Below, piece by piece: positions 11,131-47,678 of a stretch of 64,000 nt of DNA (the stretch's first letter is position 1; every line of letters begins with the position of its first letter). The stretch is from positions 4,172 through 68,171 of the forward strand of contig DASWJH010000048.1 in assembly GCA_036397255.1 (NCBI GenBank), written 5' to 3'. Source of the stretch: Nitrospiria bacterium. Lineage in GTDB: Bacteria; Nitrospirota; Nitrospiria; DASWJH01. Below the pieces are notes generated by a model. The model saw nothing but the letters and a program-made list of their open reading frames with translations, did not search any database and was not told where the DNA came from. Both the position numbers and the translations under genes were made by a program.

Positions 11131-11229
11131 TTCCTTATCCTCTATTCGTACGACTTAAAACAGTTTGAGTAATTCTATAACCCGATTCAATTCCAGAAAT
11201 CGGCTTGATGGCTCCTCAGTCAAGATAGT

Positions 11230-11970: not shown

Positions 11971-11990
11971 CCTCTATTTTCCCCCAAATT

Positions 11991-14860: not shown

Positions 14861-14883
14861 GTCCCTGAACTTTCCCGCCTATT

Positions 14884-16521: not shown

Positions 16522-16524
16522 AAA

Positions 16525-19079: not shown

Positions 19080-19087
19080 AATCAGAT

Positions 19088-20851: not shown

Positions 20852-20855
20852 AGGA

Positions 20856-21929: not shown

Positions 21930-22955
21930 TTAGGGGATCAAGCTTGAATTTTTAAAGTGGTAGGATAATCCTGAAACGAGGCATTTAAATCGCGCAGGAC
22001 TGATATCGGCACCGATAGAAACTCTTTTTAGTTCGAACAAATCTTCAGATCGATCATTTAGACCCGGAATGGTCGTCAATGCACAATCTACTTGGGATTT
22101 TTTCAATTGTTCTTTTACATAGTCCGTAAAGTCGATCTTCCTTCCATTGGGGTAAGCAAAAAATTGGCAACTTTTTCCGCAATGATGCTCAATCGTTTCA
22201 CAAGACTCCTTGATTTCCTTCACGGCATCTGAGGGGTCCATTTGACTTAAGATATTATGGGTAGCCGTATGGGAGCCGAATTCAATCAAACCATAATTAC
22301 TTAAAAATTTTATATCATCCCAAGACATCAGATCAAAATCTGAATCTCTTGAAATCGAATGAATTTTCAAATGATCGATTATTTCTTCTAAAATGAGGTC
22401 CTTTTCATGGCGTGGTAACATTTTTAAGTATTCAGCAATTTCTTGATTTGCCATTTCCTTTTCAATGGGTAAACGAAGAGAATAATATGGCAGGCCCCAT
22501 TTGGTTAGATCAATCCCCTGCTTAGAAGTGTGTTTAATAGCAAGGTATAAACGATCGGGCCAACAATGGACTTGGTCTGACACACACCTTGTCGCCAAAA
22601 AAATTACCGCTGGGATATGGTACTGGCTTAATATGGGATAAGCAATCGTATAGTTATTGCGATATCCATCATCAAAAGTGACCACGGCTGTGTAATCCGG
22701 AAGGGGTTTCCCATTTCGCATTTTTTCGATTAGCTCTGAAAGTTTTAAGACCGAATAATTCTTTTTAAGATATGAAATTTGAAACCTAAATTTTTTCTCA
22801 GGAAGCTGAGTCCAACAAAAAGGCTCAAGGGACTGTCTCACAACCCCGTGATACATCAAAATTAAAATTTTTTTCCTGTTTAGCCATCTGAAGTATCGCG
22901 TCAACCCAAAAATGTCACAAAAATAAAAAAATACTTCTTTAAGGATCTTCCTCAT
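21930..22955 (-). CDS. polysaccharide deacetylase family protein
   Basis: AVVTFDDGYRNNYTIAYPIL is the NodB TFDDG motif. It has a C-terminal extension. Confidence 0.7.
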   Translation of the reverse strand: MRKILKEVFFYFCDIFGLTRYFRWLNRKKILILMYHGVVRQSLEPFCWTQLPEKKFRFQISYLKKNYSVLKLSELIEKMRNGKPLPDYTAVVTFDDGYRNNYTIAYPILSQYHIPAVIFLATRCVSDQVHCWPDRLYLAIKHTSKQGIDLTKWGLPYYSLRLPIEKEMANQEIAEYLKMLPRHEKDLILEEIIDHLKIHSISRDSDFDLMSWDDIKFLSNYGLIEFGSHTATHNILSQMDPSDAVKEIKESCETIEHHCGKSCQFFAYPNGRKIDFTDYVKEQLKKSQVDCALTTIPGLNDRSEDLFELKRVSIGADISPARFKCLVSGLSYHFKNSSLIP

Positions 22956-22990
22956 AAAAAAATCTCATCTAAACGCAGAGCTAGTCCCAC

Positions 22991-24133
22991 TTACTTGCTT
23001 CCATGGTCATCCACACCCCATTCAACACCACAAATCGTGTAAGACTCTCCTTCTCTCCTCCAATTTTTAATTATCTGAGACAAACGTTTGGTTAATCGAT
23101 GTAGGGCCAGACGGTAGGCCGGAGATAATAGCCATTGATTTCGCATACTGTGAGAAAGACTTAGTATTTCCCCTAATGCTTGTCGAATTTCAAGAAGGCT
23201 GACAAGCGGTATATCTTGTTTTCGAATCTTCGTTCCATAGCTTGACAAAAACAGACTTTGTAAACTCCTGATGGTTCCAACCCTAACTAAGGGATTCCAA
23301 CAGTAGTTATCCAAGGCATGTAACATGGTGATGACATCTCGATAAATCGGTCCTTTCCTAAAATCTGCAAAATCCAGCACCGTCACGTTACGGTCTCCAA
23401 CCAGAATATTCGACGGAATAAAGTCCGAATGCATTCCAGATATGGGTATGTCATAACACACCTCTGAAGCCACCCGTTCCACGTGCTCTCTTACCTGATC
23501 GGATATCTGCCCACTAAGGAAACCCCTTTCTCGTGCATTTGTCACTTGTGCATGGATATCGATTACCGTTTCAGAATGACTGTAAGGACGCCCATTAATC
23601 CGATTGGACTCTTTCTGGAAATGGCTTAACCATCTGCCAGAAAATTGACAATACTGCTCGATTTGTGTAATTGACCTAAATCCAAAATGAAAACGGGTGC
23701 CATGTTTAAGGATATGGCTGAAGGCCTGGCCGGAGAATTCCTCAGTAACAATGGCTTGCAGATCCTCAAAACAAGCGATGGGAAAGATAACATCGAACTC
23801 CACTAATCGATGATTTTGTTCATTTAGAGCCTTGAGAACCCTATATTCTCTAGCCATTTTTTCATAACCCAGTTTCTGATCTGGGAATTGAAAGATCTTG
23901 ACGAAGTAATTACGGCCAGTGCTTCCATTGCATAGGTTAACCTTCAGTACAAGGGATCGGGGCCTGCAGATGGTATTCAATCTTTCAATAGTGGGAATCG
24001 AGTCTAAACCGAATATCTCTTTGTAATTCTTCCTAATACGTTCGAATACGGCGTCAACGATTTTTTGAAAATCTTTTTTAGTCTTCCTGGTGGCTTGCTT
24101 TTCCACCTTACTCAAGGATACGCTCGATGGCAT
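22991..24133 (-). CDS. protein-kinase-like-fold phosphotransferase (APH/choline-kinase family)
   Basis: GMHSDFIPSNILVGDRNVTVLDFADF contains the catalytic HxD...N loop and a DF(A) metal-binding motif characteristic of aminoglycoside/choline kinase-like enzymes. Confidence 0.55.
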   Translation of the reverse strand: MPSSVSLSKVEKQATRKTKKDFQKIVDAVFERIRKNYKEIFGLDSIPTIERLNTICRPRSLVLKVNLCNGSTGRNYFVKIFQFPDQKLGYEKMAREYRVLKALNEQNHRLVEFDVIFPIACFEDLQAIVTEEFSGQAFSHILKHGTRFHFGFRSITQIEQYCQFSGRWLSHFQKESNRINGRPYSHSETVIDIHAQVTNARERGFLSGQISDQVREHVERVASEVCYDIPISGMHSDFIPSNILVGDRNVTVLDFADFRKGPIYRDVITMLHALDNYCWNPLVRVGTIRSLQSLFLSSYGTKIRKQDIPLVSLLEIRQALGEILSLSHSMRNQWLLSPAYRLALHRLTKRLSQIIKNWRREGESYTICGVEWGVDDHGSK

Positions 24134-25109
24134 AGTCCTTTACTTTCCTTGCATGAGTAAAAATGATTATTTCACCCAGAAGACCAATAGAAAATAACTG
24201 AACTCCCAAAACGATAAGCAATACACCGAGGACTAGAATAGGTCGGTCAGCGATGGCGCCGTGTCCTAGGATCCGGTCTGCTCCCAAGTAAACAATGATC
24301 ATTCCTCCAATTCCCACCAGACCCGATCCCAGCAACCCAAAGAACCGCAAGGGTTTTTTCGTGAATTTGAATAGAAAGAATAGTGTTAGGATATCCAGTA
24401 GCCTTCTGATATAGATTCCGGGTTTAAAAATCCTCCGCTTTTTATCATAGGCGCTTTGCTTTACGCAAACCTCTGCCACCCGAAATCCTCTCTCGTAACT
24501 CAATAAGGGTAGAAATCGATGGAGGTCTCCGTAAAGAGGGACTTCTTCGACAACTTTTCTCTTTATCGCTCGAAGTCCGCAACTCAGGTCATGATAGGTT
24601 CTCCCCGTCAGTAACTGGGTTAGCCGATGAAAGATCCAAGATTGTATCCGGTTGAAAAAGGAATCAATACGAGGAAATCTCCTGGAAATGGCAAGATCAT
24701 AATTTTCTTGAAAAACCTTATTCAAAATTCGATCGATTTCTTCGGGTTCAACTTGAAAATAGGAGGATATTGTCATTATAACGGGTGCCCTTGAAACCTC
24801 AAAACCCACCGATAACGCTGTTGCTTCTCCAAAAGATCGACTTAAGGAAACGATTTTGATATTTTGATACGTTTTTTTCAAATCATTCAATACACCGATA
24901 ACATTCAAATAGGATCCATCCACAACAAAAATAAATTCAAAGGCTTTTCCATATGCTGAAAGCTTTCGTGCGTATTGGACGTAAATTTCTCGAAGATCGT
25001 CAATCCGTTCAGTAACAGGGACCACGACCGAAATATCGATTGCAACATCCGATGTTTTTTCACTATCCAATTCTTTTATTTCCTTGTTTATCATTCTTTG
25101 TTGTTCCAT
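24108..25109 (-). CDS. family-2 glycosyltransferase (polyprenyl-phosphate glycosyltransferase-like, DPM1/GtrB type) with C-terminal TM helices
   Basis: ISVVVPVTERIDDL...FVVDGS, then two C-terminal TM helices. Confidence 0.65.
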   Translation of the reverse strand: MEQQRMINKEIKELDSEKTSDVAIDISVVVPVTERIDDLREIYVQYARKLSAYGKAFEFIFVVDGSYLNVIGVLNDLKKTYQNIKIVSLSRSFGEATALSVGFEVSRAPVIMTISSYFQVEPEEIDRILNKVFQENYDLAISRRFPRIDSFFNRIQSWIFHRLTQLLTGRTYHDLSCGLRAIKRKVVEEVPLYGDLHRFLPLLSYERGFRVAEVCVKQSAYDKKRRIFKPGIYIRRLLDILTLFFLFKFTKKPLRFFGLLGSGLVGIGGMIIVYLGADRILGHGAIADRPILVLGVLLIVLGVQLFSIGLLGEIIIFTHARKVKDYAIERILE

Positions 25110-25115
25110 ATTTAT

Positions 25116-26159
25116 CTATTGAACCACCATGGTTGGCTTAATACCCCTTTCAGGCCAATTATCCCCCATTTTCACCGAAAGTTCTCCTATAATTCCCATC
25201 GCAAAGAGATGGGCACTTAAGGATAACAGAAGAAAACTGACCGTTGATAAAATCAACCAACCGTCGATTTGTTCACCCAGAAACATGCCCATTCCTAAAA
25301 AGACTGCGATGAAGGCTAAAAGGGTGAAGGGTACGCTTAAGAAACCAAACCAAAGCGCCGGACGAGAAGAAAAACTTATAATCATTTTTACGGTAATAAT
25401 ATCGAGAACCACCCTCCAGGTTCTCCCAATCCCATATTTGCTCTTTCCAAAATGTCGTGGATGGTGATTGACCACAATCTCTGAAATTCTCGCTCCGGTT
25501 AGTGTCGACATGGCAGGGATAAATCGGTGCATCTCATTATAAAGCGTTACATTTTTAATCACAGAACCGCGGAAAGCTTTTAAGGAACAGCCATTATCAT
25601 GGATTTTTACTCCCGTTACGCTACTAATAATCCAATTGGCAATCATTGAGGGTAATAAGCGGCTCCAAAATTTATCCTGCCGCCTTTTCCGCCAACCGCA
25701 GACGACGTCATATCCTTCTTCAATCTTATCCAGGAGCCGGGGAATATCAGAGGGGTCGTTCTGGAGATCTCCATCCATACTCACAATGATCTTTCCCCGC
25801 GCCAATTCGAACCCTGCTGCCATGGCAGAGGTTTGCCCGTAATTCTTTCTGAACTTGATGATCCGAATCCTTTGATCTTTAAGCTGCATTTCGGTTAGCA
25901 ATCTAAATGTCTTATCCTGGCTTCCATCATCGATAAATACGATTTCATATTGGAGGGCTAACCCATCACAAATATTTTTTATGGAAGAATACAACTCTAA
26001 AATCGATTCCTCTTCATTCATTACTGGAATCACAATTGAAAGGTCTATTTTCCAATCAAGGTCCGATGCCGTTTTTTCAAGTTTTTGAAACCGCATATTT
26101 TCTAAGATCTTATTTGGTTTAGGTAGATACAGTCCGGAATCTTTGGATAATAATACCAA
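25116..26159 (-). CDS. family-2 glycosyltransferase (ArnC/GtrB-like undecaprenyl-phosphate sugar transferase)
   Basis: LSIVIPVMNEEESI...FIDDGSQDKT...VSMDGDLQNDP (the DxD motif), then C-terminal TM helices. The true start may be the internal Met at about 26096, which would remove the 41-nt overlap with the upstream gene. Confidence 0.7.
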   Translation of the reverse strand: MVLLSKDSGLYLPKPNKILENMRFQKLEKTASDLDWKIDLSIVIPVMNEEESILELYSSIKNICDGLALQYEIVFIDDGSQDKTFRLLTEMQLKDQRIRIIKFRKNYGQTSAMAAGFELARGKIIVSMDGDLQNDPSDIPRLLDKIEEGYDVVCGWRKRRQDKFWSRLLPSMIANWIISSVTGVKIHDNGCSLKAFRGSVIKNVTLYNEMHRFIPAMSTLTGARISEIVVNHHPRHFGKSKYGIGRTWRVVLDIITVKMIISFSSRPALWFGFLSVPFTLLAFIAVFLGMGMFLGEQIDGWLILSTVSFLLLSLSAHLFAMGIIGELSVKMGDNWPERGIKPTMVVQ

Positions 26160-27252
26160 GAAACGTACCGATTCCGTTATTGATCACGTCCATCAGCGAT
26201 GAAATTCTAACCAACGAGTAATACTGGAGGTACTCCATGCAAAGGGAAAAAAAAACCCCTAAAATTAAAACCGACACCATTTTAATCCCTGAATCATTAT
26301 TTGCAAATACCGTTGCAGCATAAGCCAAATAACCCAATGGAATAAAGAGAACAATATTGATAAGTATATCCGTTAACTGCTTCCATGAGAGGTTAAAGTT
26401 TTGGAAAGGATGCATAAGGAATACCTGATTGGTAATCTCTGGTCCGGTAAGAATTTGAGTTTGAATGAACGGTTTCACCCCACTCTTATCCATGATGACC
26501 TCTCCCTTTCTTTGATCAAACAAATATAACGTAGTAATTCCATCCATGACTCGACCTGAAGGACCATTTCCGGGAATTCCTTTTAAAGATTCTGCACGAT
26601 AATTTTGAACCACCTCTTGTTCTGATAAGGCTCGATTGTATAGAGCGACTAAAAATATCTTTCCGACCCATGGGCGATTGCCTGTCCCTTCATTCCCAAT
26701 CAATAAAGGGAAAGTCGGATTCCAATTGGAGAAATCACCACTCAGGGCAGTCGATGAATCACGAAGCTGCCCATCCACATAAATTTTTTCTTTAAAAAAG
26801 TCATATGTAACGGCAATATGCTGAGGATGATTGGAATCCAATACATCTTCCACTCTCCATTCGGGATTTTTCCCATTGAGATTCGTCTTTGTTGTTCTTA
26901 ATCTAACAATAAGATCTCTTCCTTCCTGGCCTATGGTAAAATTTCTTCTAACCTTATTAGCGGAATAGCTTATAATTCGAGCGGGTCCTTTTTGATTTAA
27001 ATGCTTGGTCGTTATCCAAAACTCTAAGGTTATCCCCGAACCTGTCTTCATTGCGTTATATAACTTCTCCGCGGATGAGGAGGATCTAATCCCTGCCGTC
27101 CCTCTAATTTCCATCCCTCTTGACTGCTCAAGCCATTGAATCTCACTTTTCAAGATGGGAAGGTGGAGATCAAAAGGGGATAATAATAAAACAAAAAGTA
27201 CAACAAGGTATAAAGTTGAGAGTGTGAAATACTTGACTCGTTGTTCTCTCAT
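26119..27252 (-). CDS. membrane protein with a LamG/ConA-like jelly-roll domain and a C-terminal VanZ-like domain
   Basis: It has an N-terminal TM helix. The middle region has KIFLVALYNRALSEQEVVQNY, typical of LamG domains. The C-terminal 4-TM block IVLFIPLGYLAYAATVF...VLILGVFFSLCMEYLQ resembles VanZ. Confidence 0.4.
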   Translation of the reverse strand: MREQRVKYFTLSTLYLVVLFVLLLSPFDLHLPILKSEIQWLEQSRGMEIRGTAGIRSSSSAEKLYNAMKTGSGITLEFWITTKHLNQKGPARIISYSANKVRRNFTIGQEGRDLIVRLRTTKTNLNGKNPEWRVEDVLDSNHPQHIAVTYDFFKEKIYVDGQLRDSSTALSGDFSNWNPTFPLLIGNEGTGNRPWVGKIFLVALYNRALSEQEVVQNYRAESLKGIPGNGPSGRVMDGITTLYLFDQRKGEVIMDKSGVKPFIQTQILTGPEITNQVFLMHPFQNFNLSWKQLTDILINIVLFIPLGYLAYAATVFANNDSGIKMVSVLILGVFFSLCMEYLQYYSLVRISSLMDVINNGIGTFLGIIIQRFRTVST

Positions 27253-27315
27253 CTCGTTTGGTTAGTTTTTTTCATGCTGAGTCAACACAATTAATCCCCT
27301 CTTTCCAGGTCTCCT

Positions 27316-28479
27316 TTATTTCATAACGCGAACTGTTTTTTTGAGTTCCTGAAGTGTAATATTTGCACTCCGCTCCCAATTAAAAAAGGTCGACCGATCC
27401 AAACTTTTTTTCCTTAACCCTATCCTGAAATCTTCGTTGGTTAACACGTTAACCATTTTTTGCGAAAAATCCTCTGGTTTTTTTGGATCTGCAAGGACTG
27501 CGGCACCTCCACCAATCTCCGGACAAGCCCCGGTCTTTGATGCAATAACAGGACAACCACAGCTCATGGCTTCGACCATTGCCATTGCATAACTTTCATA
27601 AAAAGATGGAATAACAAATAGACTGGCAAGATTATAAAGTTTAGGAATTTCTTTGTGAGGGACAAACCCAATAAAATGAACCCCTTCTAGCTCATCCCGG
27701 GTCCAACCCGTATGGAGAAGATATTCTTTCACATTTCGACCTGCGATTACGAGCTTGTGGGGATATTCATGACGCGATAGAAGGTATGCTCGGATAATTG
27801 TCTCAACATTCTTTCCTCCATAATAGGTTGGATTTTCATTTCCCACATGATCCACTCGAGTAACCCCAAGGATAAATCTTTCCGGAAGCTGATATTTTTC
27901 TCGAAAAGATTCAAGCAAGCCTGGTTCATGGATCGGCCGAAAATATTCCCGCGGAGCAGGATATGTAACAACTGCTTTATTGAACGATAATCCTATATAT
28001 TTTCGATTCTCCTCAATTATAAAATTGGAGATTGCAAACAAGACAGATGCTTTTCGACAATACAAGGGGAGCATTGTTTTAATATAGGCAATGTCCCACC
28101 ATTCATAATGCTCAGGCCACGCCCACCAGGCGGGCTCATGAATTCCCATTGCCACAGGACAATGACTGATTAGGGGGACACTAAATTTTTCGTTATATAT
28201 AATATCGGCTCCTTCCCTCCACGCCCGATAGGGAACGGCAATCTGATCCCAGAGGAACTTTTGGGGAGCATGAACAAGAATTTCCTTAGTATTTCGATAG
28301 GAAGAAAAGCGCCCAAACCACTTTGAGGACCTATATAAAAGCAGGTAAGTGTTCTCCTGGTCTATTTCCAACATATTCTCGATTAGGCCTTCTATAATTG
28401 CCCGGTGTCCACTATCTTGATCCATTGCACGCATCATTATCGCTATTTTCATTGAATAACCATTTTCAACTAAATCCAC
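27316..28479 (-). CDS. glycosyltransferase family 4
   Basis: PSFYESYAMAMVEAMSCGCPVIASKTGACPEIGG (E-x7-E). Confidence 0.75.
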   Translation of the reverse strand: MDLVENGYSMKIAIMMRAMDQDSGHRAIIEGLIENMLEIDQENTYLLLYRSSKWFGRFSSYRNTKEILVHAPQKFLWDQIAVPYRAWREGADIIYNEKFSVPLISHCPVAMGIHEPAWWAWPEHYEWWDIAYIKTMLPLYCRKASVLFAISNFIIEENRKYIGLSFNKAVVTYPAPREYFRPIHEPGLLESFREKYQLPERFILGVTRVDHVGNENPTYYGGKNVETIIRAYLLSRHEYPHKLVIAGRNVKEYLLHTGWTRDELEGVHFIGFVPHKEIPKLYNLASLFVIPSFYESYAMAMVEAMSCGCPVIASKTGACPEIGGGAAVLADPKKPEDFSQKMVNVLTNEDFRIGLRKKSLDRSTFFNWERSANITLQELKKTVRVMK

Positions 28480-29631
28480 CTACTGTGTTTCAGGATAGTA
28501 TGCGGAATGACGAGCCTTAACGTTAGGCCTCTTTAAGAGAAGACTAAAAAAAGTTTTTGGCAAGGCTTGATTTTGCCCTGATACGATTAGATTTTTGTTG
28601 GGTTTTCTTCTCAGGTTCATCTTTTTAATTTGATGCATGCTGGACTTTAACAATTCAATTGGGAGGTAGATAAAGGCCAATAGCTTTTTATTAAAGGCAA
28701 TAGATGAAAACTCATACCCATATTCTCTCATGAGAAAACCAGTTAATTTTTGAATGATGAATATCTTTGACCGTGACAATACTTTTTCCCCCTTCCGGAT
28801 AGATTGGGTGTTTACCCTTTTTAAAGTTCCCTTTTTCCAAGGTTCATTTTTAAAATAATTAGTAGATGTCTTATAGAATTCCAACATGGTTTCGGAATAT
28901 TCCTCTCCCACAAACCTGCATAATCTTTCCATCTCCTCTTTAGGGTGTTGAGTTAAATCCTCATACCGAACTTCAATATAGGATTCTTCTCTATTGGAAA
29001 AATGATTACCCAAAACAATATCACTTGCCCAAGAAAGAGCATGTATAATGATATCCTTTGAGGCATCTGGCATTTTCAAACTGGAGGCCACAACATCCCT
29101 GGGGTCCCGGATAATATGAATAACCTTGGCATTAGGAAATATTCTAAAAAGTTGATCAATATGCCTCACATTCCCTGGTGTTTTTTCCCCAAACCTGGTT
29201 GCCCCCTTTATTTTTGCGTACTCCTCGAGAAGAATCCTATAGAATCCCTCATAAGTTCTCGACTTGATCACTAGCATTCTATCTTTAACCCCCGAAAGAA
29301 TTTCCTCAATACCCGGCAAAAACTGGAACGCTCGAATTCTTCTCACAAAAGAAAAAAATTTTTCCAAATCTTCATCCCTACTCATTGAAGGTATGAATCG
29401 CTTGATTTGCAAAATTTGGTCAAAATAATGAATCTCCCCAAAAATAGCAATTTTGGGATGGGCATTGATTATGAGCTGCAACATGGTTGTGCCTGACCTT
29501 GCGGCTCCTACGACAAAAATTGGAAAACAGTCTTGAAAGCCTTCTTGAATATTTTTATTATTATTCATTGATAAGGAAAATCTTTTAATTTCTAAAAAAG
29601 AATCCTGATTTAAAGCATGGTGGTTTCTCAT
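28480..29631 (-). CDS. PAPS-dependent sulfotransferase
   Basis: FPIFVVGAARSGTTMLQ is the 5'-PSB P-loop-like motif, and VIHIIRDPRDVVAS is the 3'-PB motif. Both are sulfotransferase hallmarks. Confidence 0.7.
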   Translation of the reverse strand: MRNHHALNQDSFLEIKRFSLSMNNNKNIQEGFQDCFPIFVVGAARSGTTMLQLIINAHPKIAIFGEIHYFDQILQIKRFIPSMSRDEDLEKFFSFVRRIRAFQFLPGIEEILSGVKDRMLVIKSRTYEGFYRILLEEYAKIKGATRFGEKTPGNVRHIDQLFRIFPNAKVIHIIRDPRDVVASSLKMPDASKDIIIHALSWASDIVLGNHFSNREESYIEVRYEDLTQHPKEEMERLCRFVGEEYSETMLEFYKTSTNYFKNEPWKKGTLKRVNTQSIRKGEKVLSRSKIFIIQKLTGFLMREYGYEFSSIAFNKKLLAFIYLPIELLKSSMHQIKKMNLRRKPNKNLIVSGQNQALPKTFFSLLLKRPNVKARHSAYYPETQ

Positions 29632-29652
29632 TACAAGCAGGGTAAGAAAACG

Positions 29653-30633
29653 CTACACGTTCTCTTCCGTAACCTGTCGAGGAGGACGAAAACTGCCGCT
29701 CCCAAGGACGTAGGCCAACCACCAAGGAATCCAGGATAATATTTGGACCACCCGACCGATAAGCGTAATGGCAAGGGCTTCTGCGGGAGGAACTCCAACC
29801 ATTGACATGAATACCATAAAAGTAGCATCAAAGACCCCTAGCCCATTGATGGCAATCGGAATCCTTGTAATCAAAAGAGTTAAAGGTACAATTCCAGCAA
29901 TATAAACAAGACCGATGTCAACACCAATCGCCTTGGCAATTAGCCACGCATGAAGGATTGGAAGAAACTGCTCGCCAAATGTTAGTGAAGAAAATTTAAA
30001 AAGGGTTGTTTTATCATTTTGATATTCCCGATAGATCATGTGAAACTTGGTAATCTTTTTTAAGAGCCACGATTCCCTGAAGGACCCCAAAATTCTCTCC
30101 CTAATAAAATCAAAAACGGTTTGGCTAAAAGACATCGCAAAACCAAAGGTTGATAATAGAAGAAATAATCCTCCCACCCACCATACCGACTGGAATCGAT
30201 CATCAAGAGCCCCTGATATCGTAAGAATCGAAAACCCTATCAAGCCGACCAAGAGTGCAGAGAGAAAACCGATCATCCGTTCAATAATAATTGAAGCAAT
30301 AACCTCATTGGATTTTAATCCAATTCGTGTCGTGCTATAAGCTCTAATTGCATCTGCACCCACTGTGGCAGGAAGAAAAATACCCCAAACCATCGATGCG
30401 CAATAAATATTCATTCCCTTAACGAAAGGAAGAAAAATACCCCTTCCCTTTAATAACAATTTCCACTTAAAAGTCATAATGGCTCGATCAATCGTATTCA
30501 CCCCGAATACCAATAAAAGGTAGATTGGATTGGGTGTCATAATCATCCGCCCGAGTTCGCTTACTCCCCCTAATTTCCATAGGATTAACACGAACAAAGT
30601 AATTGTTACCGCAGCTTTTAAAAATAATTTCAT
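29653..30633 (-). CDS. flippase-like membrane protein (LPG-synthase-TM/UPF0104 family)
   Basis: It is 326 aa with about 8 TM helices, is Gly/Ala-rich, and begins with a short basic N-terminus. This architecture is commonly found beside GT2 genes. Confidence 0.45.
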   Translation of the reverse strand: MKLFLKAAVTITLFVLILWKLGGVSELGRMIMTPNPIYLLLVFGVNTIDRAIMTFKWKLLLKGRGIFLPFVKGMNIYCASMVWGIFLPATVGADAIRAYSTTRIGLKSNEVIASIIIERMIGFLSALLVGLIGFSILTISGALDDRFQSVWWVGGLFLLLSTFGFAMSFSQTVFDFIRERILGSFRESWLLKKITKFHMIYREYQNDKTTLFKFSSLTFGEQFLPILHAWLIAKAIGVDIGLVYIAGIVPLTLLITRIPIAINGLGVFDATFMVFMSMVGVPPAEALAITLIGRVVQILSWIPWWLAYVLGSGSFRPPRQVTEENV

Positions 30634-30675
30634 CCTTTAATTACTAAAACCCTCCAATAAAACCAATATAAATGT

Positions 30676-32280
30676 CTAGGCTGGTCCACGAAATTTTAGG
30701 AGATGCTCTCCGAGTCTTAATGCCAGTGCTGCAATGGTTAAAGTTGGATTTGCCGCCCCGACGGTTACAAATACACTACTCCCCACAATAAACAGATTTT
30801 TAACATCATGGGCTCTAAGGTTTTTATCAACAACGCTGGTCCTCGGGTCATTTCCCATCCTACAGGTCCCACTGTGGTGCCCCCCGTATCCAAGCCGGTG
30901 TACTTCCTGTTTTTCAGCCCCTAATGCCTCAAACATACTCTTTGTAATTTTATCAACCTTTTTAAAGGTTTCCCGCTCATAGTCGGAAATTGAATAAAAA
31001 ATCTTCGGACAGGGGTTCCCAAAAAAATCCTTCTTTTCATAATCCAGCTCCACACGGTTCTTCTCTGAAGGCAACGGTTCAACCATTGACCCAAATCCAA
31101 AGTACTTTCCAAATTCTTGCTTCAACTCATTTTTTATTTCTCTTTCAAGGTCCAATCCCCAATGCCCCCCGTATCGAATAATATCTTTTGCAATATTCCT
31201 CGGTCTTGGTCCACTATCGATTCCAGCAATCGTAAAAGCCGCCTCATGATCCCTGGTAGGTTTCTCATAAAACTGCTGTGTGCCAACGGTGTAAAAGCCC
31301 TTCCGAAAGGGATAGAATTGCGCTTTGACCCGCCCCTGTTGATAGCGACCGGTATGATCCATGAAGTACCTTCCCACTTTTCCGCTGGAATTCGAAAAAC
31401 CATCCGGAAAATCAAGAGATTTAGAAAGCAAGAGCAACCGCGGCGATTCAACTCCGTGAGCAGCCAAAATATAAATCCCGGCAATACACTGATGTTCCTT
31501 TTTATCCGGGGTTGCGAAGACAACCCTTTTTACCCCGCCCGATCCATTACTTTCAAAACGAACCACATTGGCATTGGGAACCACGTTAACCTTTCCGGTT
31601 TGTTCAGCCAACTCAATATGAATATCTCCGCTATACCGCGCTCGAATAGGGCATGCACTGCAAACGGAATACGTCATACAAGCAGGTCGCCCGCGATAAT
31701 TAACTGAGGTTCTCGCCTGAGGAATGGTCCGGAATTGAATCCCCAAAGCCTTACAAGCTTTGGTCCACTCTTTCTCCGCATATCCAGCAGGAAAACCCGG
31801 AAGAGGATACGGTTTTGAGCGAGGAGGCCCAAATGGATTATCATCATCTCCGGAAACTCCTAATTCTTCCTCGGCCTGACAATAATAAGGTTCAAGATCT
31901 TCGTACGTAATGGGCCAGTCCTCTGCGATGCCGTACCTCGATCTCATTTCAAAATCACTCTCATGAAGTCGAGTCGCATACCCTTGCCAATGCAGCGTAC
32001 TCCCCCCTACGGCCTTAACCCTGTATTTATTTAGAGGATACTCTACTTCACCACCATTGGTATAAATATCCCTTTCCGGAATATCTGATCGCCATGGGTT
32101 ATCCCCGTTGAGGAAACGGTCCATATAATGATGACGGTCGGCAACATCATGCCGCGGCCCTGCCTCCAATACGATTACTTTTATACCAGCTAAGCCCAAT
32201 TTATAAGCTACAAGGGCACCGGCGATCCCACCACCAATAATACACACATCGTAGGAATTGTAATTCAAGTTCTTAATCAT
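30676..32280 (-). CDS. GMC-family FAD-dependent oxidoreductase
   Basis: The N-terminus YDVCIIGGGIAGALVAYKLGLAGIKVIVLEAGPR is an FAD Rossmann fold. At 534 aa it has GMC-like length. Confidence 0.7.
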   Translation of the reverse strand: MIKNLNYNSYDVCIIGGGIAGALVAYKLGLAGIKVIVLEAGPRHDVADRHHYMDRFLNGDNPWRSDIPERDIYTNGGEVEYPLNKYRVKAVGGSTLHWQGYATRLHESDFEMRSRYGIAEDWPITYEDLEPYYCQAEEELGVSGDDDNPFGPPRSKPYPLPGFPAGYAEKEWTKACKALGIQFRTIPQARTSVNYRGRPACMTYSVCSACPIRARYSGDIHIELAEQTGKVNVVPNANVVRFESNGSGGVKRVVFATPDKKEHQCIAGIYILAAHGVESPRLLLLSKSLDFPDGFSNSSGKVGRYFMDHTGRYQQGRVKAQFYPFRKGFYTVGTQQFYEKPTRDHEAAFTIAGIDSGPRPRNIAKDIIRYGGHWGLDLEREIKNELKQEFGKYFGFGSMVEPLPSEKNRVELDYEKKDFFGNPCPKIFYSISDYERETFKKVDKITKSMFEALGAEKQEVHRLGYGGHHSGTCRMGNDPRTSVVDKNLRAHDVKNLFIVGSSVFVTVGAANPTLTIAALALRLGEHLLKFRGPA

Positions 32281-32295
32281 CTTTTTTCAAAAACT

Positions 32296-32961
32296 CTATT
32301 TCCAGCTTAGGCTCCCAGGTCCCACATATTCCCGGGGATTCCCTGGAACACCCGGGTAATTGGTGTATCCAGCCAATTTCCACCCCGCTTCTCCGGAATA
32401 AAAACGAACCAGAAGATCCCGCACTACAAAATCACGAAAATGGCGTTCAGGTTTGGATAGAAACAAACGTTCAACATTCGATTTAATCTTCCCGAAAAGA
32501 TTGGAAAGATCTTTTTGCCTTCCTCCTTCATATTTCCACAAAATGGATTCCAAAACCACACTTCTTTCCCTTAGCGAAATATTCGCAAAGCCTAATTTTC
32601 CCCTCCGCAACTTTGTCAATTGATCCAACATATTAAGCCCAGATTGATACTCCTTTAACAAACCTTTCTTTTGTTCGGTCGCATCATTGACCAGTTTGAC
32701 CATATTTTCCTGGCTAATCCACAACCTTTGGGGAACCAGTACTTCAAGTAAGGCCAACATGGTCCTCATATCCTGATCAGACAATCGGCCGGGAGGGTGG
32801 TTTCGATTCAAGTTGGGGTTAATGGCCTTCTTCACATATCGCAATGCAGGATAAGAAAAAATACCTATAAGGGTCAGCACACCCGCCGTAACCATGAAAA
32901 TCCGTCTGCTCATTATTTTTTCTTTGATTGAAGGGCGAGAATTCATCTTGCTCTCTCTCAT
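32296..32961 (-). CDS. Tat-signal small subunit partnering the GMC oxidoreductase (gluconate 2-dehydrogenase subunit 3-like)
   Basis: The N-terminus SRRIFMVTAGVLTLIG is a twin-arginine signal. It lies immediately upstream of the GMC flavoprotein, the arrangement seen in membrane-associated GMC dehydrogenases. Confidence 0.5.
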   Translation of the reverse strand: MRESKMNSRPSIKEKIMSRRIFMVTAGVLTLIGIFSYPALRYVKKAINPNLNRNHPPGRLSDQDMRTMLALLEVLVPQRLWISQENMVKLVNDATEQKKGLLKEYQSGLNMLDQLTKLRRGKLGFANISLRERSVVLESILWKYEGGRQKDLSNLFGKIKSNVERLFLSKPERHFRDFVVRDLLVRFYSGEAGWKLAGYTNYPGVPGNPREYVGPGSLSWK

Positions 32962-33033
32962 CTGAAAAAATTTAATTTCCGTTCATCATGGAATTTACTG
33001 ACCTCATTATAAAGGAGCATATTTTCTGATTTC

Positions 33034-34995
33034 TTAAATTTCAGCCTCAATCTTTTCATGGTTTCGAGCTGATTGAATCAGCTCTTCCGAGAGGTCCTGG
33101 ACGGAGGTATGTTCGATAAAAATCCGGTACCATACCTCACTATTCAGGAGAAGCCAAAGTCGATTTCCATGGTCTTTATTTCCAATCAGATGTTCCCCCA
33201 AAAAGCTATTAATCGAAGGTTGGTGGAATATACCGTTCTTGGCCATATGTGAATTTTCAAGGAATTTTTTGAACAAGAATGGATATTCATTTTTTAACAT
33301 GTAGGGAAGCGCTGAGGAAAAACCTTGCTTAGGGCGATTCAGAAGGGGCTCTGGCAAATACCGTTTAGCGAGCTGCATCTGGATATATCTAAGAGAGCGT
33401 CCCCTCACCTTAAGTCTTATGGGAAGCCTTGCAGCGAATTCTGCAATTTCGTGATCCATAAAAGGACTTCTTGCCTCCAGTCCATGCGCCATTGTCATTC
33501 GATCCAAAATCATCACCGAGTGGTCTGGAAGCCGAATTTGGCTATCTGCAGAAAGCATCCGATCTAGAATATCAGAGTCTGGGGCCCGATCAAAAGCCTC
33601 TCTGATGGCAAAACCGGGGTCAAATGGAAAGTTATTGATCTCTTTTACCGAACCATAAAGGTCATTGAGCTGCACGCGATCAAAATAAAAATAACCAAGG
33701 CTTTTCGCATAGCGTGTCCCACCTTCCAAAAAGGATAGTTTGTGCAACCATTTAAGCTGGTGCCCAAGGCTTTTATACCAATTTCCATCGGAAATGTATG
33801 GGAGGAGTTTTCCAATTATATTTTTTCGAATCATACTGGGAATTTGAGCATAATAACCGGCAAATCGATTTCCATAATAACGGTCATAACCTCCAAAAAG
33901 TTCATCCCCCCCATCGCCCCCAAGAACCACCTTCACATGCTCTCGCGCCATTTTAGCGATTAGGTCCGTACACACAGATAAAGAATCAGATGGCTCATCT
34001 AATTGCCATACCAGGCGTGGAAGACTTTTCACCAGGGAAGGAATCATAACTTTTTCATGATGTCGAGTGCCATACTGATTGGCAACCAATTTGGCAAGAG
34101 GGGCCTCGTCAAACGAACCAAAAGGAAGACTGACCGAAAATGTTTCAATAGGTTCGGAGGTCACATGTTTCATCACCATCGCAACAATTAGGGTTGAGTC
34201 TAATCCCCCGCTTAAAAAAGCCCCTACAGGTACATCGCTCACCATGTGATATTTTAAACACTTGATCATTCTTTCCTCAAGATCGTCCACTAAATCGTCA
34301 TCAGAACCCGATAATTTAGGTTCATACTCTAAATCCCAGTAGCGTTCGATCTTTAATCCAGTTTCCTCTTCAAAGGTTAGGAAGTGAGCTGGGGGAAGTT
34401 TTCGAATGGAACGAAACATAGAACGGGGGGGAGCTATAATACGTAAACTAAGATACTGGTCAAGGGAGCCAAGATCCATTTCGGCCAAAGAACGATCGAC
34501 CGCGAGAAGAGCCTTTATTTCTGAGGCAAAGAGAAATTCCTCTTCCCGTTGGACATAAAAAAAGGGTTTTTGGCCCAATCTATCACGGGCAGCAAATAAT
34601 CTCTTTGATTGATTATCCCAAATTACAAATGCAAACATCCCTCGAAGATATTTAACACATCGCTCCCCATACTCTTCATATAAATGCAAAATAGTTTCGG
34701 TATCAGTATCCGTATGAAATCGATGGCCCCTTCCAATCAGATCCGATCGAAGATCACGATAGTTATAGATTTCGCCATTAAAGACAATCCATTTTGTTCG
34801 GTCTTCATTCGAAATAGGTTGTTTTCCGGTATGGAGGTCAATAATGCTTAATCGACGGTGTCCGAGACCTACTTCGTTATTCATATAAAAACCTATATCA
34901 TCTGGTCCCCGGTGGGAGAGGGATTGGGCCATTATTTTAATTTCGCTCTGATTGACCTCACCTTGAAAGCTCACCTTTCCACAAATCCCGCACAT
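33034..34995 (-). CDS. asparagine synthase (glutamine-hydrolysing) family amidotransferase, EPS-locus type
   Basis: The N-terminus MCGICGKVSF is the Ntn Cys glutaminase start. SGGLDS is the PP-loop. It is 653 aa. Confidence 0.85.
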   Translation of the reverse strand: MCGICGKVSFQGEVNQSEIKIMAQSLSHRGPDDIGFYMNNEVGLGHRRLSIIDLHTGKQPISNEDRTKWIVFNGEIYNYRDLRSDLIGRGHRFHTDTDTETILHLYEEYGERCVKYLRGMFAFVIWDNQSKRLFAARDRLGQKPFFYVQREEEFLFASEIKALLAVDRSLAEMDLGSLDQYLSLRIIAPPRSMFRSIRKLPPAHFLTFEEETGLKIERYWDLEYEPKLSGSDDDLVDDLEERMIKCLKYHMVSDVPVGAFLSGGLDSTLIVAMVMKHVTSEPIETFSVSLPFGSFDEAPLAKLVANQYGTRHHEKVMIPSLVKSLPRLVWQLDEPSDSLSVCTDLIAKMAREHVKVVLGGDGGDELFGGYDRYYGNRFAGYYAQIPSMIRKNIIGKLLPYISDGNWYKSLGHQLKWLHKLSFLEGGTRYAKSLGYFYFDRVQLNDLYGSVKEINNFPFDPGFAIREAFDRAPDSDILDRMLSADSQIRLPDHSVMILDRMTMAHGLEARSPFMDHEIAEFAARLPIRLKVRGRSLRYIQMQLAKRYLPEPLLNRPKQGFSSALPYMLKNEYPFLFKKFLENSHMAKNGIFHQPSINSFLGEHLIGNKDHGNRLWLLLNSEVWYRIFIEHTSVQDLSEELIQSARNHEKIEAEI

Positions 34996-35591
34996 CAGTT
35001 ACCACCTCCTTTTACAGCAACTCTTTTCTCAAATTTTGTATAGCAGGATTTCAAAAAATGAGACAAAAAGATTAAGGAGAAAATCACAACGAGTTCAATC
35101 CCAATGGCAAGTAGGTTGTAGGGTTGAAGGATCGTTGCAATCCATTCATGGGTTCCCACAGAAGTAGAATGGGCATGACTGACGCCTAATAAAATTTGGA
35201 ATGGAGCCTGATAAGTCTCTCCACTGATAGGCCAAAATAGGGGAATTCCGTAAGGCGGCCGTTTATCCGGACCAAACATGTCTAAAAGGAGATGCGAAGC
35301 GTATGCAAATGATAGTATCCATCCGGATGGGATGATCAACTTTGTCTTTTTAAGATTGATAACCATTGATATCAAGAATCCAGAGGTTAAAGCGAAGATC
35401 AGGCTATGCGAAATCCCCTGATGGTAAAGCGCTGGTTTCCCTTGAATAATCCCAGGAATGAAATCCAAATCGGGAGCAACTGCAAGGAAAAGGCATAGGG
35501 ATAAAAATAAGGGTCTGTTAAAAAACTGGTTTCCAGATGCTATCTTATAAATGAGGTAACCTGCCAAGGCATGTCCAATAGGCGTTGCCAT
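34995..35591 (-). CDS. membrane-bound metal-dependent hydrolase-like protein (YdjM/DUF457 type)
   Basis: It is a small 198-aa polytopic protein with an N-terminal MATPIGHALAGY and several His residues in helices (HQGISHS, SHLLLD). Confidence 0.4.
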   Translation of the reverse strand: MATPIGHALAGYLIYKIASGNQFFNRPLFLSLCLFLAVAPDLDFIPGIIQGKPALYHQGISHSLIFALTSGFLISMVINLKKTKLIIPSGWILSFAYASHLLLDMFGPDKRPPYGIPLFWPISGETYQAPFQILLGVSHAHSTSVGTHEWIATILQPYNLLAIGIELVVIFSLIFLSHFLKSCYTKFEKRVAVKGGGN

Positions 35592-35650
35592 TTTTCACCC
35601 ATTATAAAACATCGAAAAAGTTCAAACCTTTGGATAAGGTTCTTCCAAAT

Positions 35651-37432: not shown

Positions 37433-37435
37433 TTC

Positions 37436-38605: not shown

Positions 38606-38611
38606 TTAGAT

Positions 38612-39346: not shown

Positions 39347-39383
39347 TTAGTTTTTTCTCCTGTTTGAGTATTTCAAATAACTC

Positions 39384-40373: not shown

Positions 40374-40395
40374 TAGGTCACTCGCCCTCCTTGAC

Positions 40396-42099: not shown

Positions 42100-42117
42100 T
42101 ATCTTTTGTACATTAAA

Positions 42118-44180: not shown

Positions 44181-44213
44181 CTGAGGTGGGGTTCACAACT
44201 GGATGAAGAAGCT

Positions 44214-45569: not shown

Positions 45570-45590
45570 TAGAACATTCCCTTCCTGTGG

Positions 45591-47546: not shown

Positions 47547-47589
47547 GGTCTCCTTTTAACTTAACTTATAATATTTTAAACAGGCTTCC

Positions 47590-47660: not shown

Positions 47661-47678
47661 CACGATCCTCTGAAGACT

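Follow-up and report, generated by a model that had tools for sequence, protein, structure and literature searches.

An exosortase-type, Wzx/Wzy-dependent EPS cluster of an uncultivated Nitrospiria bacterium (MAG) appears equipped to sulfate its own polymer by means of a PF13469-family sulfotransferase, with AP-superfamily proteins as a less certain second set of enzymes. We put the probability of this joint reading at about 0.65. The cluster lies in the window, by which we mean the whole 64,000-nucleotide stretch of DNA that was analyzed, and as a sulfated-polymer cluster it is of a kind already known from synechan and from the capsules of Vibrio and Cobetia. The first-pass annotation had claimed that the exported polymer is sulfated. 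A genuine sulfotransferase within the EPS locus, accompanied by CysD and a GTPase, speaks for that claim, but the latter pair would provide APS, not PAPS, and the claim stands only in part.

The EPS locus and its sulfotransferase

The locus is a single run of genes on one strand, bounded by a sigma-54 response regulator at one end and a formyltransferase at the other. Its right flank consists of pur genes, and on the left side the contig runs 4 kb past the window before ending. The features that define the locus and surround the sulfotransferase are as follows.

1977..58204 (-): whole EPS locus, 48 co-oriented genes, ~56 kb, largest intergenic gap 182 nt
56771..58204 (-): sigma-54 response regulator (PF00158)
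49646..56039 (-): export and chain-length genes together with the priming transferase (AAA_31, GNVR/Wzz, BBP2_2 barrel, Poly_export)
49646..51040 (-): priming sugar transferase
47679..48203 (-): RfaH/NusG-like operon antiterminator, directly upstream of CysD (Pfam NusG, 7e-16)
29653..30633 (-): LPG_synthase_TM, membrane protein of flippase-like type, encoded immediately upstream of the sulfotransferase
28480..29631 (-): PAPS-type sulfotransferase (PF13469, TPST/CurM-like clade), 383 aa, the sole such gene in the window
27316..28479 (-): GT4 glycosyltransferase, with its start codon right after the sulfotransferase stop (0-nt gap)
13331..14860 (-): Wzx-like flippase
11991..13334 (-): Wzy-like polymerase
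4599..5483 (-): exosortase EpsH (PF09721, 3.4e-54)
3930..4568 (-): EpsI (PF11984, 1.1e-22)
1977..2780 (-): formyltransferase

Other markers of exosortase-type EPS systems in the locus include a DUF3473 deacetylase (PF11959), an AsnB-type amidotransferase (PF00733), and a FemAB-like protein (PF13480). The antiterminator scored 112 bits against the RfaH model TIGR01955, under the cutoff of 144.5, and in one other locus (L092) the matching position is likewise occupied. An additional ORF (7526..8653) was weighed as a glucuronyl C5-epimerase, in parallel to Agl32. PF06662 was just one of its ten alpha/alpha-toroid matches, and its best match in the PDB was squalene-hopene cyclase, with D-glucuronyl C5-epimerase at an E value of 0.3.

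The 383-aa ORF reported in the first-pass annotation, with its two PAPS-binding motifs, is present at exactly 28480..29631 (-). Its 5'-PSB reads A-R45-S-G-T-T49 and its 3'-PB reads I-I-R175-D-P-R-D-V-V-A-S183. Profile searches, which had been named as a check on these motifs, returned matches well beyond chance: Sulfotransfer_3 (PF13469) matched at an E value of 2e-35 and 123.5 bits (cutoff, 27) over profile positions 1-216 of 216, and Sulfotransfer_1 matched at 4e-16. About 680 homologues were found. Across 31 aligned homologues, R45, S46, G47, T48, and T49 were conserved in at least 90%, and E66, K150, R175, and S183 were invariant. The A-R45-S-G-T-T49 segment aligns with the PRSGTT loop of TPSTs, and residue-by-residue alignment to TPST2 pairs E66 with the catalytic Glu, K150 with the catalytic Lys, and R175 and S183 with the 3'-PB. 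Following the TPST2 literature, we take E66 to be the general base and K150 to be the catalytic Lys. A 3'-phosphate-binding motif of the form R-x7-S marks PAPS, not APS, as the donor.

The AlphaFold model of the protein (pLDDT, 87; pTM, 0.86) matched solved PAPS sulfotransferases in Foldseek with a best E value of 7.5e-12, and each of the 50 listed matches was a protein of sulfotransferase fold whose solved structure contains PAP or PAPS. Judged by conserved motifs and modeled fold, 28480..29631 is a genuine, full-length PAPS-type sulfotransferase that is predicted to be catalytically intact. Translation probably begins at M22 (ATG at 29568, giving 362 aa), a start favored because the NCBI call is there, orthologues begin there, and residues 1 to 25 have a pLDDT of <50; no clear Shine-Dalgarno sequence was seen upstream of either candidate ATG. 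The protein is predicted to be cytoplasmic, having neither a signal peptide nor a transmembrane segment. It carries an extra basic C-terminal tail of ~80 aa, with 15 K/R versus 4 D/E and a 12-residue hydrophobic patch; a hydrophobic-moment scan for an amphipathic anchoring helix gave this tail no special standing.

A comparison with carbohydrate sulfotransferases, by structure and by HMM, had been proposed as a way to examine the enzyme. When this was run, the nearest relatives proved instead to be tyrosylprotein and CurM/OLS sulfotransferases (E about 1e-11). TPST1/2 matched at 5e-9 by phmmer and 7.5e-12 by Foldseek, against only about 1e-4 for the glycosaminoglycan sulfotransferases (NDST, 3-OST), and the best NCBIfam match was a weak and fragmentary one to NoeE. 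TPST1/2 and the CurM/OLS domains, the closest solved structures and sequences, share with the Nitrospiria enzyme the R-S-G-T-T loop, a Glu base 21 residues downstream, the Lys, and the R...S 3'-PB, but identity is just 17-23%. They also differ in setting, since TPSTs sit in the Golgi as type II membrane proteins and work on peptides and the CurM ST is a PKS domain, whereas the enzyme described here is free-standing, cytoplasmic, and encoded in a glycan locus. Because the nearest relatives are not carbohydrate enzymes, it is gene context, and not similarity, that points to a sugar acceptor. The nearest solved structure tells little of the acceptor in any case, because the PF13469 family is broad.

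The gene context is consistent across contigs. Orthologues of the sulfotransferase (35-48% identity) occur in four other contigs, all in polysaccharide gene settings: between a GT4 gene and Wzx in two (L007 and L008), adjoining LPG_synthase_TM, as here, in the third (L009), and among glycosyltransferases in the fourth (L010). In a further locus (L176), Wzx and Wzy flank a related PF13469 gene. Orthologue neighbors were read from precomputed Pfam contexts, as a tblastn census is too insensitive for divergent glycosyltransferase and Wzx families. With orthologues consistently in polysaccharide loci, a sulfated polymer is the best reading.

It is rather improbable that the enzyme acts instead in a TPST/RaxST-like manner, on a tyrosine acceptor in some secreted or PEP-CTERM protein or peptide, or in a CurM/Stf-like manner, with a lipid or other small molecule as acceptor, its placement in the EPS locus then reflecting co-regulation only. 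Such an acceptor would fit the ranking of relatives, in which TPST1/2, CurM/OLS, and mycobacterial Stf1/Stf9 come far ahead of the glycosaminoglycan enzymes and the NoeE match is fragmentary; it would also fit the substrates of the solved relatives, a protein tyrosine and a polyketide intermediate, and the MprF/HpnL-like, lipid-flippase-type character of the membrane protein encoded upstream. However, the orthologues sit among glycosyltransferases in four independent contigs, with Wzx adjacent in two, and the 0-nt gap ties the sulfotransferase to a GT4 gene, with no peptide-export ABC/peptidase system or precursor peptide beside it. If the acceptor is the polymer, as we favor, sulfation would follow the steps of the neighboring GT4 enzymes and precede Wzx flipping of the unit, and the basic C-terminal tail may keep the enzyme at the membrane.

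Sulfate activation and the supply of PAPS

The cluster was also said to encode CysD and a CysN-like GTPase. Both genes are where they were placed and the identity of CysD holds, but the GTPase falls under every curated cutoff.

46755..47546 (-): CysD, sulfate adenylyltransferase small subunit, 263 aa (Pfam PAPS_reduct, 2.7e-35)
45591..46754 (-): short EF-1alpha/CysN-like GTPase, 387 aa, start abutting the CysD stop, without an APS-kinase domain

CysD scored 302.6 bits against NCBIfam NF003587 (cutoff, 195). The GTPase scored 266.8 against a cutoff of 336.1 for CysN (TIGR02034) and 319 against a cutoff of 502 for EF-1alpha, so that EF-1alpha models outscore CysN; its G-motifs (GHxDHGKS and PGHRxxxKNM) look like those of EF-1alpha. 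In 59 of 69 related loci the GTPase gene comes immediately after CysD, and we read it as the G-subunit of ATP sulfurylase because of its adjacency to CysD. It is a member of a distinct, conserved short-GTPase subfamily. Like canonical CysDN/CysDNC (NodPQ), the pair combines a CysD over the curated threshold with an adjacent, apparently translationally coupled GTPase of the EF-1alpha/CysN lineage with intact motifs. Unlike the canonical GTPase, which has 475 aa (~630 aa with CysC), the protein here has 387 aa and scores under the CysN cutoffs, and its subfamily never occurs with a fused or adjacent APS kinase and is found in glycan loci with AP-superfamily partners.

On the evidence of their sequences, CysD and the short GTPase should together convert sulfate to APS, using ATP and GTP. 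A search of the window for APS kinase (CysC) gave no P-loop motif in six frames, no tblastn match to an E. coli CysC probe, and no Pfam APS_kinase match, and no CysC was found in 83 related CysD-GTPase loci. The probe is approximate but does detect CysC, as it matched L035 at 55% identity. Neither CysQ (PAP phosphatase) nor a sulfate permease was found as a Pfam family on ORFs of at least 150 aa in the window, and none was found in the left flank. As CysD and the GTPase yield only APS and neither APS kinase nor PAP phosphatase accompanies them, the locus encodes no PAPS supply. Because the locus is without APS kinase, the sulfotransferase would depend for its PAPS on a kinase whose gene lies in another part of the genome.

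AP-superfamily proteins and the CysD-GTPase pair

Three AP-superfamily genes of the locus were absent from the first-pass annotation.

44214..45569 (-): AP-superfamily "Phosphodiest" protein (PDE-like), 451 aa, cytoplasmic, nucleophile Ser64, metal ligands conserved
16525..17922 (-): SulfA, sulfatase-fold protein, 465 aa, Thr52 (W-T-P-P-x-H) in place of C/S-x-P-x-R, no signal peptide
9901..11130 (-): SulfB, sulfatase-fold protein, 409 aa, sharing 26-27% identity with SulfA, nucleophile position occupied by Thr, no signal peptide

The PDE-like gene directly follows the CysD-GTPase pair and is its conserved downstream partner. SulfA and SulfB both have the S1 sulfatase fold, with 6HHM and 5G2U as the nearest solved structures. 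The formylglycine motif is missing from both, SulfA having T-P-P-A-H and SulfB T-A-V-S-A where 7OZ8 has S-T-P-A-R, and Thr52 is invariant in 31 of 31 SulfA-family members. By inspection, the first metal-binding Asp of the sulfatase-fold ORFs is at residue 12, with no N-terminal hydrophobic leader; most carbohydrate sulfatases of bacteria are exported to the periplasm or beyond. A role for SulfA and SulfB as true polymer-trimming sulfatases was rejected on three grounds: the missing formylglycine motif, the invariant Thr, and the lack of a signal peptide.

Comparison of metagenomic loci showed how closely such genes accompany the CysD-GTPase pair. An AP-superfamily gene lies within 5 kb of the GTPase in 18 of 22 loci (16 of 20 after de-replication) versus 5 of 62 control loci (Fisher p, 2e-10), and in independent metagenomic loci this conserved partner carries a Ser/Thr nucleophile, with Thr at that position in 25 of 25 sulfatase-like neighbors. 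The sulfotransferase HMM, the CysC probe, and the PSB/PB motif pair gave no match in any of the 83 CysD-GTPase loci. The usual partner of CysD and the short GTPase is an AP-superfamily gene, not a Pfam-type sulfotransferase. None of the 83 loci had a haloarchaeal GC content or acidic proteome. Two SulfA-family loci (L176 and L177) are without a CysD-GTPase pair within 10 kb; in both of these and here, SulfA-family genes are interleaved with glycosyltransferases.

A precedent for sulfatase-like proteins that add sulfate comes from Halobacterium salinarum, in which Agl30 (VNG1056C) and Agl31 (VNG1057C) were described in 2025 as N-glycan sulfotransferases (PMC11980604). SulfA and SulfB resemble them in having an AP-superfamily, sulfatase-like fold and in being encoded in a cluster for lipid-linked glycan assembly, a likeness of fold and context. 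Agl30 and Agl31 differ in being archaeal, in acting on a dolichol-phosphate-linked N-glycan, and in having no reported link to CysD/CysN; the paper is silent on the sulfate donor, the nucleophile residue, and the mechanism (PMC11980604). SulfA is a candidate Agl31-like sulfotransferase.

By analogy with these enzymes, APS may plausibly feed a second route of sulfation, in which the AP-superfamily proteins would be a second, Agl30/Agl31-like set of glycan sulfotransferases fed by the dedicated CysD-GTPase; we infer this with less certainty than the role of the PF13469 enzyme. A more specific version, which we offer tentatively, is that CysD, the short GTPase, and one or more cytoplasmic AP-superfamily proteins make up a self-contained, PAPS-independent system of glycan sulfation, a bacterial counterpart of Agl30/Agl31 in which the pair would make APS and the AP enzymes would move the sulfuryl group to lipid-linked sugars.

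The same proteins could possibly, though we think it doubtful, be cytoplasmic phosphoryl transferases or hydrolases, and the CysD-GTPase pair would then boost APS/PAPS supply to classical sulfotransferases whose genes lie elsewhere. AP-superfamily enzymes of phosphoryl transfer as a rule use a Ser/Thr nucleophile (NPP, LtaS, EptA, PhnA), and a Thr in this role is characteristic of phosphoryl rather than sulfuryl transferases (LtaS, EptA, NPP), so the three proteins could add phospho-substituents or hydrolyze nucleotides. Possible roles would include adding or removing phospho-substituents of the glycan and hydrolyzing PAP, PPi, APS, or nucleotide-sugar by-products. The PDB sequence matches of the PDE-like protein, which are phosphonoacetate hydrolases only, point the same way; a pyrophosphatase or PAP-ase beside ATP sulfurylase would pull an unfavorable reaction, and the window itself holds a classical sulfotransferase. 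Very improbable, in our estimate, is a role for the CysD-GTPase pair and the sulfatase-like genes in sulfur scavenging and assimilation, the sulfatases releasing sulfate from organosulfates and CysDN activating it for cysteine synthesis, with their place in an EPS cluster due to chance. Sulfatase and cysDN genes are indeed co-regulated in classical sulfate-starvation regulons, and both Pfam and NCBI label SulfA and SulfB sulfatases. However, these proteins lack C/S-x-P-x-R, with a family-invariant Thr in its place, and neither has a signal peptide; cysH, cysI/J, and a transporter are all missing from the locus, and glycosyltransferase genes stand between them, in L176 and L177 as well as here, with no gap exceeding 182 nt.

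Known sulfated polymers and significance

In studies of sulfated capsules, the hallmark of the gene clusters is cysD, cysN, and cysC together with a sulfotransferase (PMC11641403, PMC11766843). The capsule clusters of Vibrio sp. KMM 8419 and Cobetia marina KMM 1449, whose polymers are chemically proven to be sulfated, resemble the Nitrospiria locus in placing one or more sulfotransferase genes and a dedicated second cysD/cysN copy in a polysaccharide cluster (PMC11641403, PMC11766843). They also carry cysC, fused or separate, and in Cobetia cysQ and a sulfate permease as well, and thus encode complete PAPS supply and recycling, whereas the locus here has no cysC or cysQ. Export in those strains is by an ABC transporter (Kps) rather than by the Wzx/Wzy and exosortase-type system seen here, and the short EF-1alpha-like CysN and the three AP-superfamily genes further set the Nitrospiria locus apart. 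Another known system of this kind is the synechan (xss) cluster of Synechocystis PCC 6803, a Wzx/Wzy-dependent EPS cluster with embedded Pfam-type sulfotransferases, XssA/XssE (PMC8205485). The synechan study, which searched PF00685, PF03567, and PF13469, demonstrated a sulfated EPS by genetics and chemistry (PMC8205485). The xss cluster is cyanobacterial and without sulfate-activation or sulfatase-like genes, and the likeness drawn here is one of cluster type.

The first-pass annotation had described sulfated bacterial EPS as rare, a view that is partly outdated: in chemical terms, sulfated glycoconjugates are a common component of biofilm EPS (PMC10483923), and the homologues of this sulfotransferase alone number in the hundreds. 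Known sulfotransferase genes are rarely found in dominant biofilm organisms even though sulfated glycoconjugates are widespread (PMC10483923). The CysD-GTPase-AP module, which comes without an APS kinase or classical sulfotransferase, is in our view the more important result, as it offers a testable hypothesis for two questions: the sulfate donor and mechanism of the sulfatase-fold sulfotransferases Agl30/31, and the mismatch between abundant sulfated glycoconjugates in environmental biofilms and scarce classical sulfotransferase genes. If the hypothesis is true, a PAPS-independent polysaccharide sulfotransferase would be attractive for sulfated-glycan biomanufacture, in which the cost of PAPS is a bottleneck. 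If the polymer is sulfated, sulfated EPS would be extended to exosortase-type EPS systems and to the Nitrospirota, which matter in nitrification, manganese cycling, and engineered biofilms.

Conserved residues of a PAPS-type sulfotransferase

The 383-amino-acid product of the minus-strand ORF 28480..29631 matches Pfam Sulfotransfer_3 over the entire profile (PF13469, positions 1 to 216 of 216; E = 2e-35, 123.5 bits against a cutoff of 27) and also Sulfotransfer_1 (E = 4e-16). Both binding motifs reported by the first-pass annotation are present, A-R45-S-G-T-T (5'-PSB) and I-I-R175-D-P-R-D-V-V-A-S183 (3'-PB), bearing out its description of this gene. Across 31 homologues with 25 to 48% identity, H58, E66, K150, R175, D176, R178, and S183 were invariant, and R45, S46, G47, T48, and T49 were at least 90% conserved. 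Residue-by-residue phmmer alignment placed R45 in the PRSGTT loop of human TPST2, E66 at the second Glu of CGEE (21 residues past the Arg, the same spacing as in TPST2), K150 at the Lys of NKDP, and R175/S183 in VRDGRASVHS. From the TPST2 literature, we take these to be the catalytic Arg, the Glu base, the Lys, and the 3'-phosphate site. Because the 3'-phosphate site is intact, this enzyme should need PAPS as its donor.

A confident AlphaFold model built on the homologue alignment (pLDDT 87, pTM 0.86) gave top Foldseek PDB matches that were all PAPS- or PAP-bound sulfotransferases. NCBI names the identical protein "sulfotransferase [Nitrospiria bacterium]" and starts it at M22 (362 aa), which is the likelier start since orthologues begin there and residues 1 to 25 are disordered in the model; neither candidate ATG has a clear ribosome-binding site. 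The family HMM found no second copy in the window.

Both sequence and fold place the nearest solved relatives in the TPST/CurM type. TPST1/2 (phmmer E = 5e-9; Foldseek E = 7.5e-12) and the CurM and OLS sulfotransferase domains (1e-7; about 1e-10) were followed in Foldseek by mycobacterial Stf9 and Stf1 (1e-7 and 4.5e-7, respectively) and heparan sulfate NDST and 3-OST (about 1e-4). The structural and profile comparison proposed in the first-pass annotation therefore confirmed a sulfotransferase and did not single out a carbohydrate enzyme, so the acceptor must be sought in gene context.

Genomic context and the probable glycan acceptor

The gene lies among 48 co-oriented minus-strand genes (1977-58204; largest gap at most 182 nt) in a window of 40% GC. 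Pfam annotation identifies an exosortase/PEP-CTERM-type, Wzx/Wzy-dependent EPS locus, flanked on the right by purine biosynthesis genes. To the left of the window, about 4 kb encoding secreted fn3-type proteins precede the contig end.

Content of the EPS locus by Pfam (all window ORFs of at least 150 aa)
Regulation: sigma-54 response regulator and GGDEF protein
Antitermination: RfaH-like protein
Priming and precursors: priming Bac_transf, UDP-sugar dehydrogenase, WecB
Assembly: five GT4 and three GT2 glycosyltransferases, Wzx, Wzy
Export and chain length: Poly_export, BBP2_2 barrel, GNVR/Wzz, AAA_31 ATPase
Modification: three deacetylases (one with DUF3473), AsnB, FemAB-like protein, carbamoyltransferase, two methyltransferases
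Exosortase: EpsH and EpsI

A GT4 gene start abuts the sulfotransferase stop codon, and a flippase-like LPG_synthase_TM gene lies 21 nt upstream. An identical-protein look-up returned only contigs carrying the same locus, and contexts were compared on four unrelated contigs with orthologues 35 to 48% identical. Two have the order GT4, sulfotransferase, Wzx (L007 and L008), one has a polysaccharide deacetylase and LPG_synthase_TM as flanking genes (L009), and in the fourth (L010) the orthologue adjoins a series of glycosyltransferase, methyltransferase, and sugar-nucleotide genes. In another locus, L176, a different PF13469 gene sits between Wzx and Wzy. It is this consistent context, not similarity, that points to a glycan acceptor. 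The protein has neither a signal peptide nor a transmembrane segment and ends in a strongly basic tail of 83 residues (15 K/R versus 4 D/E). The enzyme would sulfate one of the sugars in the lipid-linked repeat unit on the cytoplasmic side of the membrane, before the unit is flipped, the same model proposed for XssA/XssE of synechan (PMC8205485). Paralogous sulfotransferases occur in tandem in L030 (8923..10792) and about 7 kb apart in L007 (18357..19319).

Other genes of the locus may bear on the polymer or its control. A stand-alone 172-aa GGDEF protein (56106..56624, minus), flanked by the sigma-54 regulator and export genes, and a divergent response-regulator-GGDEF protein at the locus edge (58618..59550, plus), hint at c-di-GMP control. 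The RfaH/NusG-paralogue antiterminator (47679..48203, minus), which scores under the curated RfaH cutoff, lies within the operon directly upstream of CysD; in L092 a NusG-like gene (6260..6751) stands in the order Bac_transf, NusG-like, UDP-sugar dehydrogenase, epimerase, CysD. A GMC-family FAD oxidoreductase (30676..32280, minus) comes just before the flippase-like gene and the sulfotransferase, and is itself preceded by a 221-aa protein (32296..32961, minus) with no family match. The N terminus of the 221-aa protein (…SRRIFMVTAGVLTLIG…) resembles a twin-arginine signal, which suggests that the pair may form a periplasmic two-subunit sugar dehydrogenase.

The carbamoyltransferase (Carbam_trans_N/C; 35651..37432, minus) suggests that the polymer is O-carbamoylated; in L176 (11426..13828) a sulfatase-like gene is followed by SxtJ- and DUF5989-type small proteins and then the same carbamoyltransferase. 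A 587-aa fusion of ATP-grasp and low-molecular-weight phosphotyrosine phosphatase (19088..20851, minus) and a separate 380-aa APH-fold kinase (22991..24133, minus), both mid operon, may likewise modify the polymer or have a regulatory role. A fusion of Laminin_G_3 (concanavalin-like) and VanZ membrane domains is shared by two unrelated EPS loci with a sulfatase-like gene, this one (26119..27252, minus) and L177 (right end). The epimerase and DAO-family oxidoreductase calls (39384..40487 and 40396..42099, minus) overlap by 92 nt; the JGI epimerase product has 329 aa, so its translation probably begins further downstream than the listed ATG. Divergent at the end of the locus, a secreted, Gly/Asn-rich, possibly beta-helical 599-aa protein without a Pfam match (110..1909, plus) is a candidate matrix protein or polysaccharide-processing enzyme; contig L174 places fn3 and purple-acid-phosphatase-N-domain proteins beside it, just outside the window.

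The CysD-GTPase pair and its alkaline-phosphatase-superfamily neighbors

The pair and the AP-superfamily genes of the locus are five minus-strand genes:
46755..47546, minus: CysD
45591..46754, minus: short CysN-like GTPase
44214..45569, minus: alkaline-phosphatase (AP)-superfamily "Phosphodiest" protein (PDE-like)
16525..17922, minus: SulfA, matching Pfam Sulfatase and SGSH_C
9901..11130, minus: SulfB, matching the same two families

CysD clears the curated NCBIfam model, and the GTPase gene starts at the base following its stop codon. The GTPase belongs to the EF-1alpha/CysN lineage and has only 387 aa; it scores under every curated NCBIfam cutoff, EF-1alpha models beat CysN models, and NCBI labels it simply "GTP-binding protein." Its subfamily (P0121 to P0156) is tight and coherent (386 to 389 aa, 50 to 70% identity, mean column identity 61%), with several members from Nitrospirota and Manganitrophaceae, and has G-motifs that resemble those of EF-1alpha rather than CysN. 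Database labels within it vary (GTP-binding protein, EF-1alpha, 50S ribosome-binding GTPase, CysN/CysC), and one relative (P0157) has 556 aa with an unexplained extension.

No APS kinase was detected in the window, as a GxSGSGKST P-loop in any frame, a tblastn match to a CysC probe, or a Pfam APS_kinase domain, and neither CysQ nor a sulfate permease was found in the EPS locus. In contrast, capsule clusters with chemically validated sulfation in Vibrio sp. KMM 8419 and Cobetia marina carry cysD, cysN, and cysC, and the latter adds cysQ and a permease (PMC11641403, PMC11766843). Of the sulfate-activation pair proposed in the first-pass annotation, CysD stands, the GTPase falls under the CysN cutoffs, and CysD plus CysN do not amount to a PAPS supply. 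If the sulfotransferase needs PAPS, an APS kinase would therefore have to be encoded elsewhere in the genome.

That annotation also overlooked the three AP-superfamily genes, which amends its interpretation. Two further loci of the GTPase subfamily (L091 and L092) share the order CysD, GTPase, Phosphodiest with the window, L092 being an exosortase locus arranged like the window, and in a third (L093) the pair is surrounded by three Phosphodiest genes. Together with 80 loci from a metagenome-contig scan with the GTPase alignment, these gave 83 loci, searched with all window proteins. CysD was directly upstream of the GTPase in 59 of the 69 with room for it. Where at least 5 kb was available on both sides, a PDE-like or sulfatase-like gene lay within 5 kb of the GTPase in 18 of 22 loci (16/20 after de-replication at 80% GTPase identity), versus 5 of 62 control loci of sulfotransferase homologues (odds ratio, 51; Fisher P = 2e-10, indicative only because of some dependence among loci). 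None of the 83 loci gave a match to the sulfotransferase-family HMM, the CysC probe, or the 5'-PSB/3'-PB motif pair. The CysD-GTPase pair is linked more tightly to the three AP-superfamily genes than to a classical sulfotransferase. Separately, CysD-GTPase was near a sulfotransferase homologue in only 1 of 84 loci (L061, Bryobacteraceae), and a Chloroflexota locus (L042, 5566..8656) has tandem PDE-like genes directly upstream of one.

Sulfatase-like proteins and a possible sulfate donor

In alignments with genuine sulfatases, T-P-P-A-H of SulfA takes the place of the formylglycine motif (S/C-x-P-x-R), and SulfB likewise has Thr there. With the motif missing and no signal peptide on either protein, they cannot be formylglycine sulfatases. 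Sulfatase-like ORFs beside CysD-GTPase in other loci had the Thr in 25/25 cases and the motif Arg in 0/25. Among 31 SulfA family members, from taxa including Nitrospirota, Methylomirabilales, Marinimicrobia, KSB1, and Calditrichota, W51-T52, P54-x-H56, D12, and D270-H271 were invariant and P53 was at least 90% conserved. The PDE-like family keeps metal ligands D25, H80, and D265-H266 and has Ser or Thr at the nucleophilic Thr of phosphonoacetate hydrolase, its only PDB relative, which is very distant (E = 0.003).

Ser/Thr nucleophiles of the AP superfamily usually attack phosphorus, not sulfur. This chemistry makes a role as phosphotransferases or nucleotide hydrolases a serious rival, and is the main objection to the alternative that a class of sulfatase-fold sulfotransferases could use APS as donor, suggested by the constant CysD-GTPase pairing without an APS kinase or classical sulfotransferase. 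A precedent for sulfotransferases of this fold is Halobacterium salinarum, where membrane-bound Agl30 and soluble Agl31, annotated as alkaline-phosphatase or sulfatase-like, were shown in 2025, through gene deletions and through Haloferax expression, to sulfate a dolichol-linked N-glycan (PMC11980604). Their nearest solved structures are 5G2U (BT1596) and 6HHM, and the paper is silent on donor, nucleophile, and mechanism (PMC11980604). The likeness of SulfA to Agl31 lies in fold neighborhood, solubility, and glycan-cluster context. A literature search found no paper describing a CysD-GTPase-AP-superfamily module.

One gene away from SulfB, an alpha/alpha-toroid protein (7526..8653, minus) matches several Pfam families, including the D-glucuronyl C5-epimerase C terminus (31 bits, above cutoff); in L174/L175 its Pfam record also lists Ulvan_lyase_N. 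In a PDB sequence search, this protein was not distinguishable from repeats of the squalene-hopene-cyclase type (C5-epimerase E = 0.3). A homologue directly follows a SulfA-like gene in L177 (11416..12669), and the locus tag of the Halobacterium C5-epimerase Agl32 (VNG1058H) immediately follows those of Agl30/31 (VNG1056C, VNG1057C).

In granular-sludge EPS, sulfated glycoconjugates are chemically common, and few known sulfotransferase genes occur in its dominant organisms (PMC10483923). All functions described here are predictions for an uncultivated organism. Sulfation of the exported polymer, as the first-pass annotation suggested, is the best-supported reading, with the glycan substrate now drawn from context and CysD plus CysN not taken as a PAPS supply.
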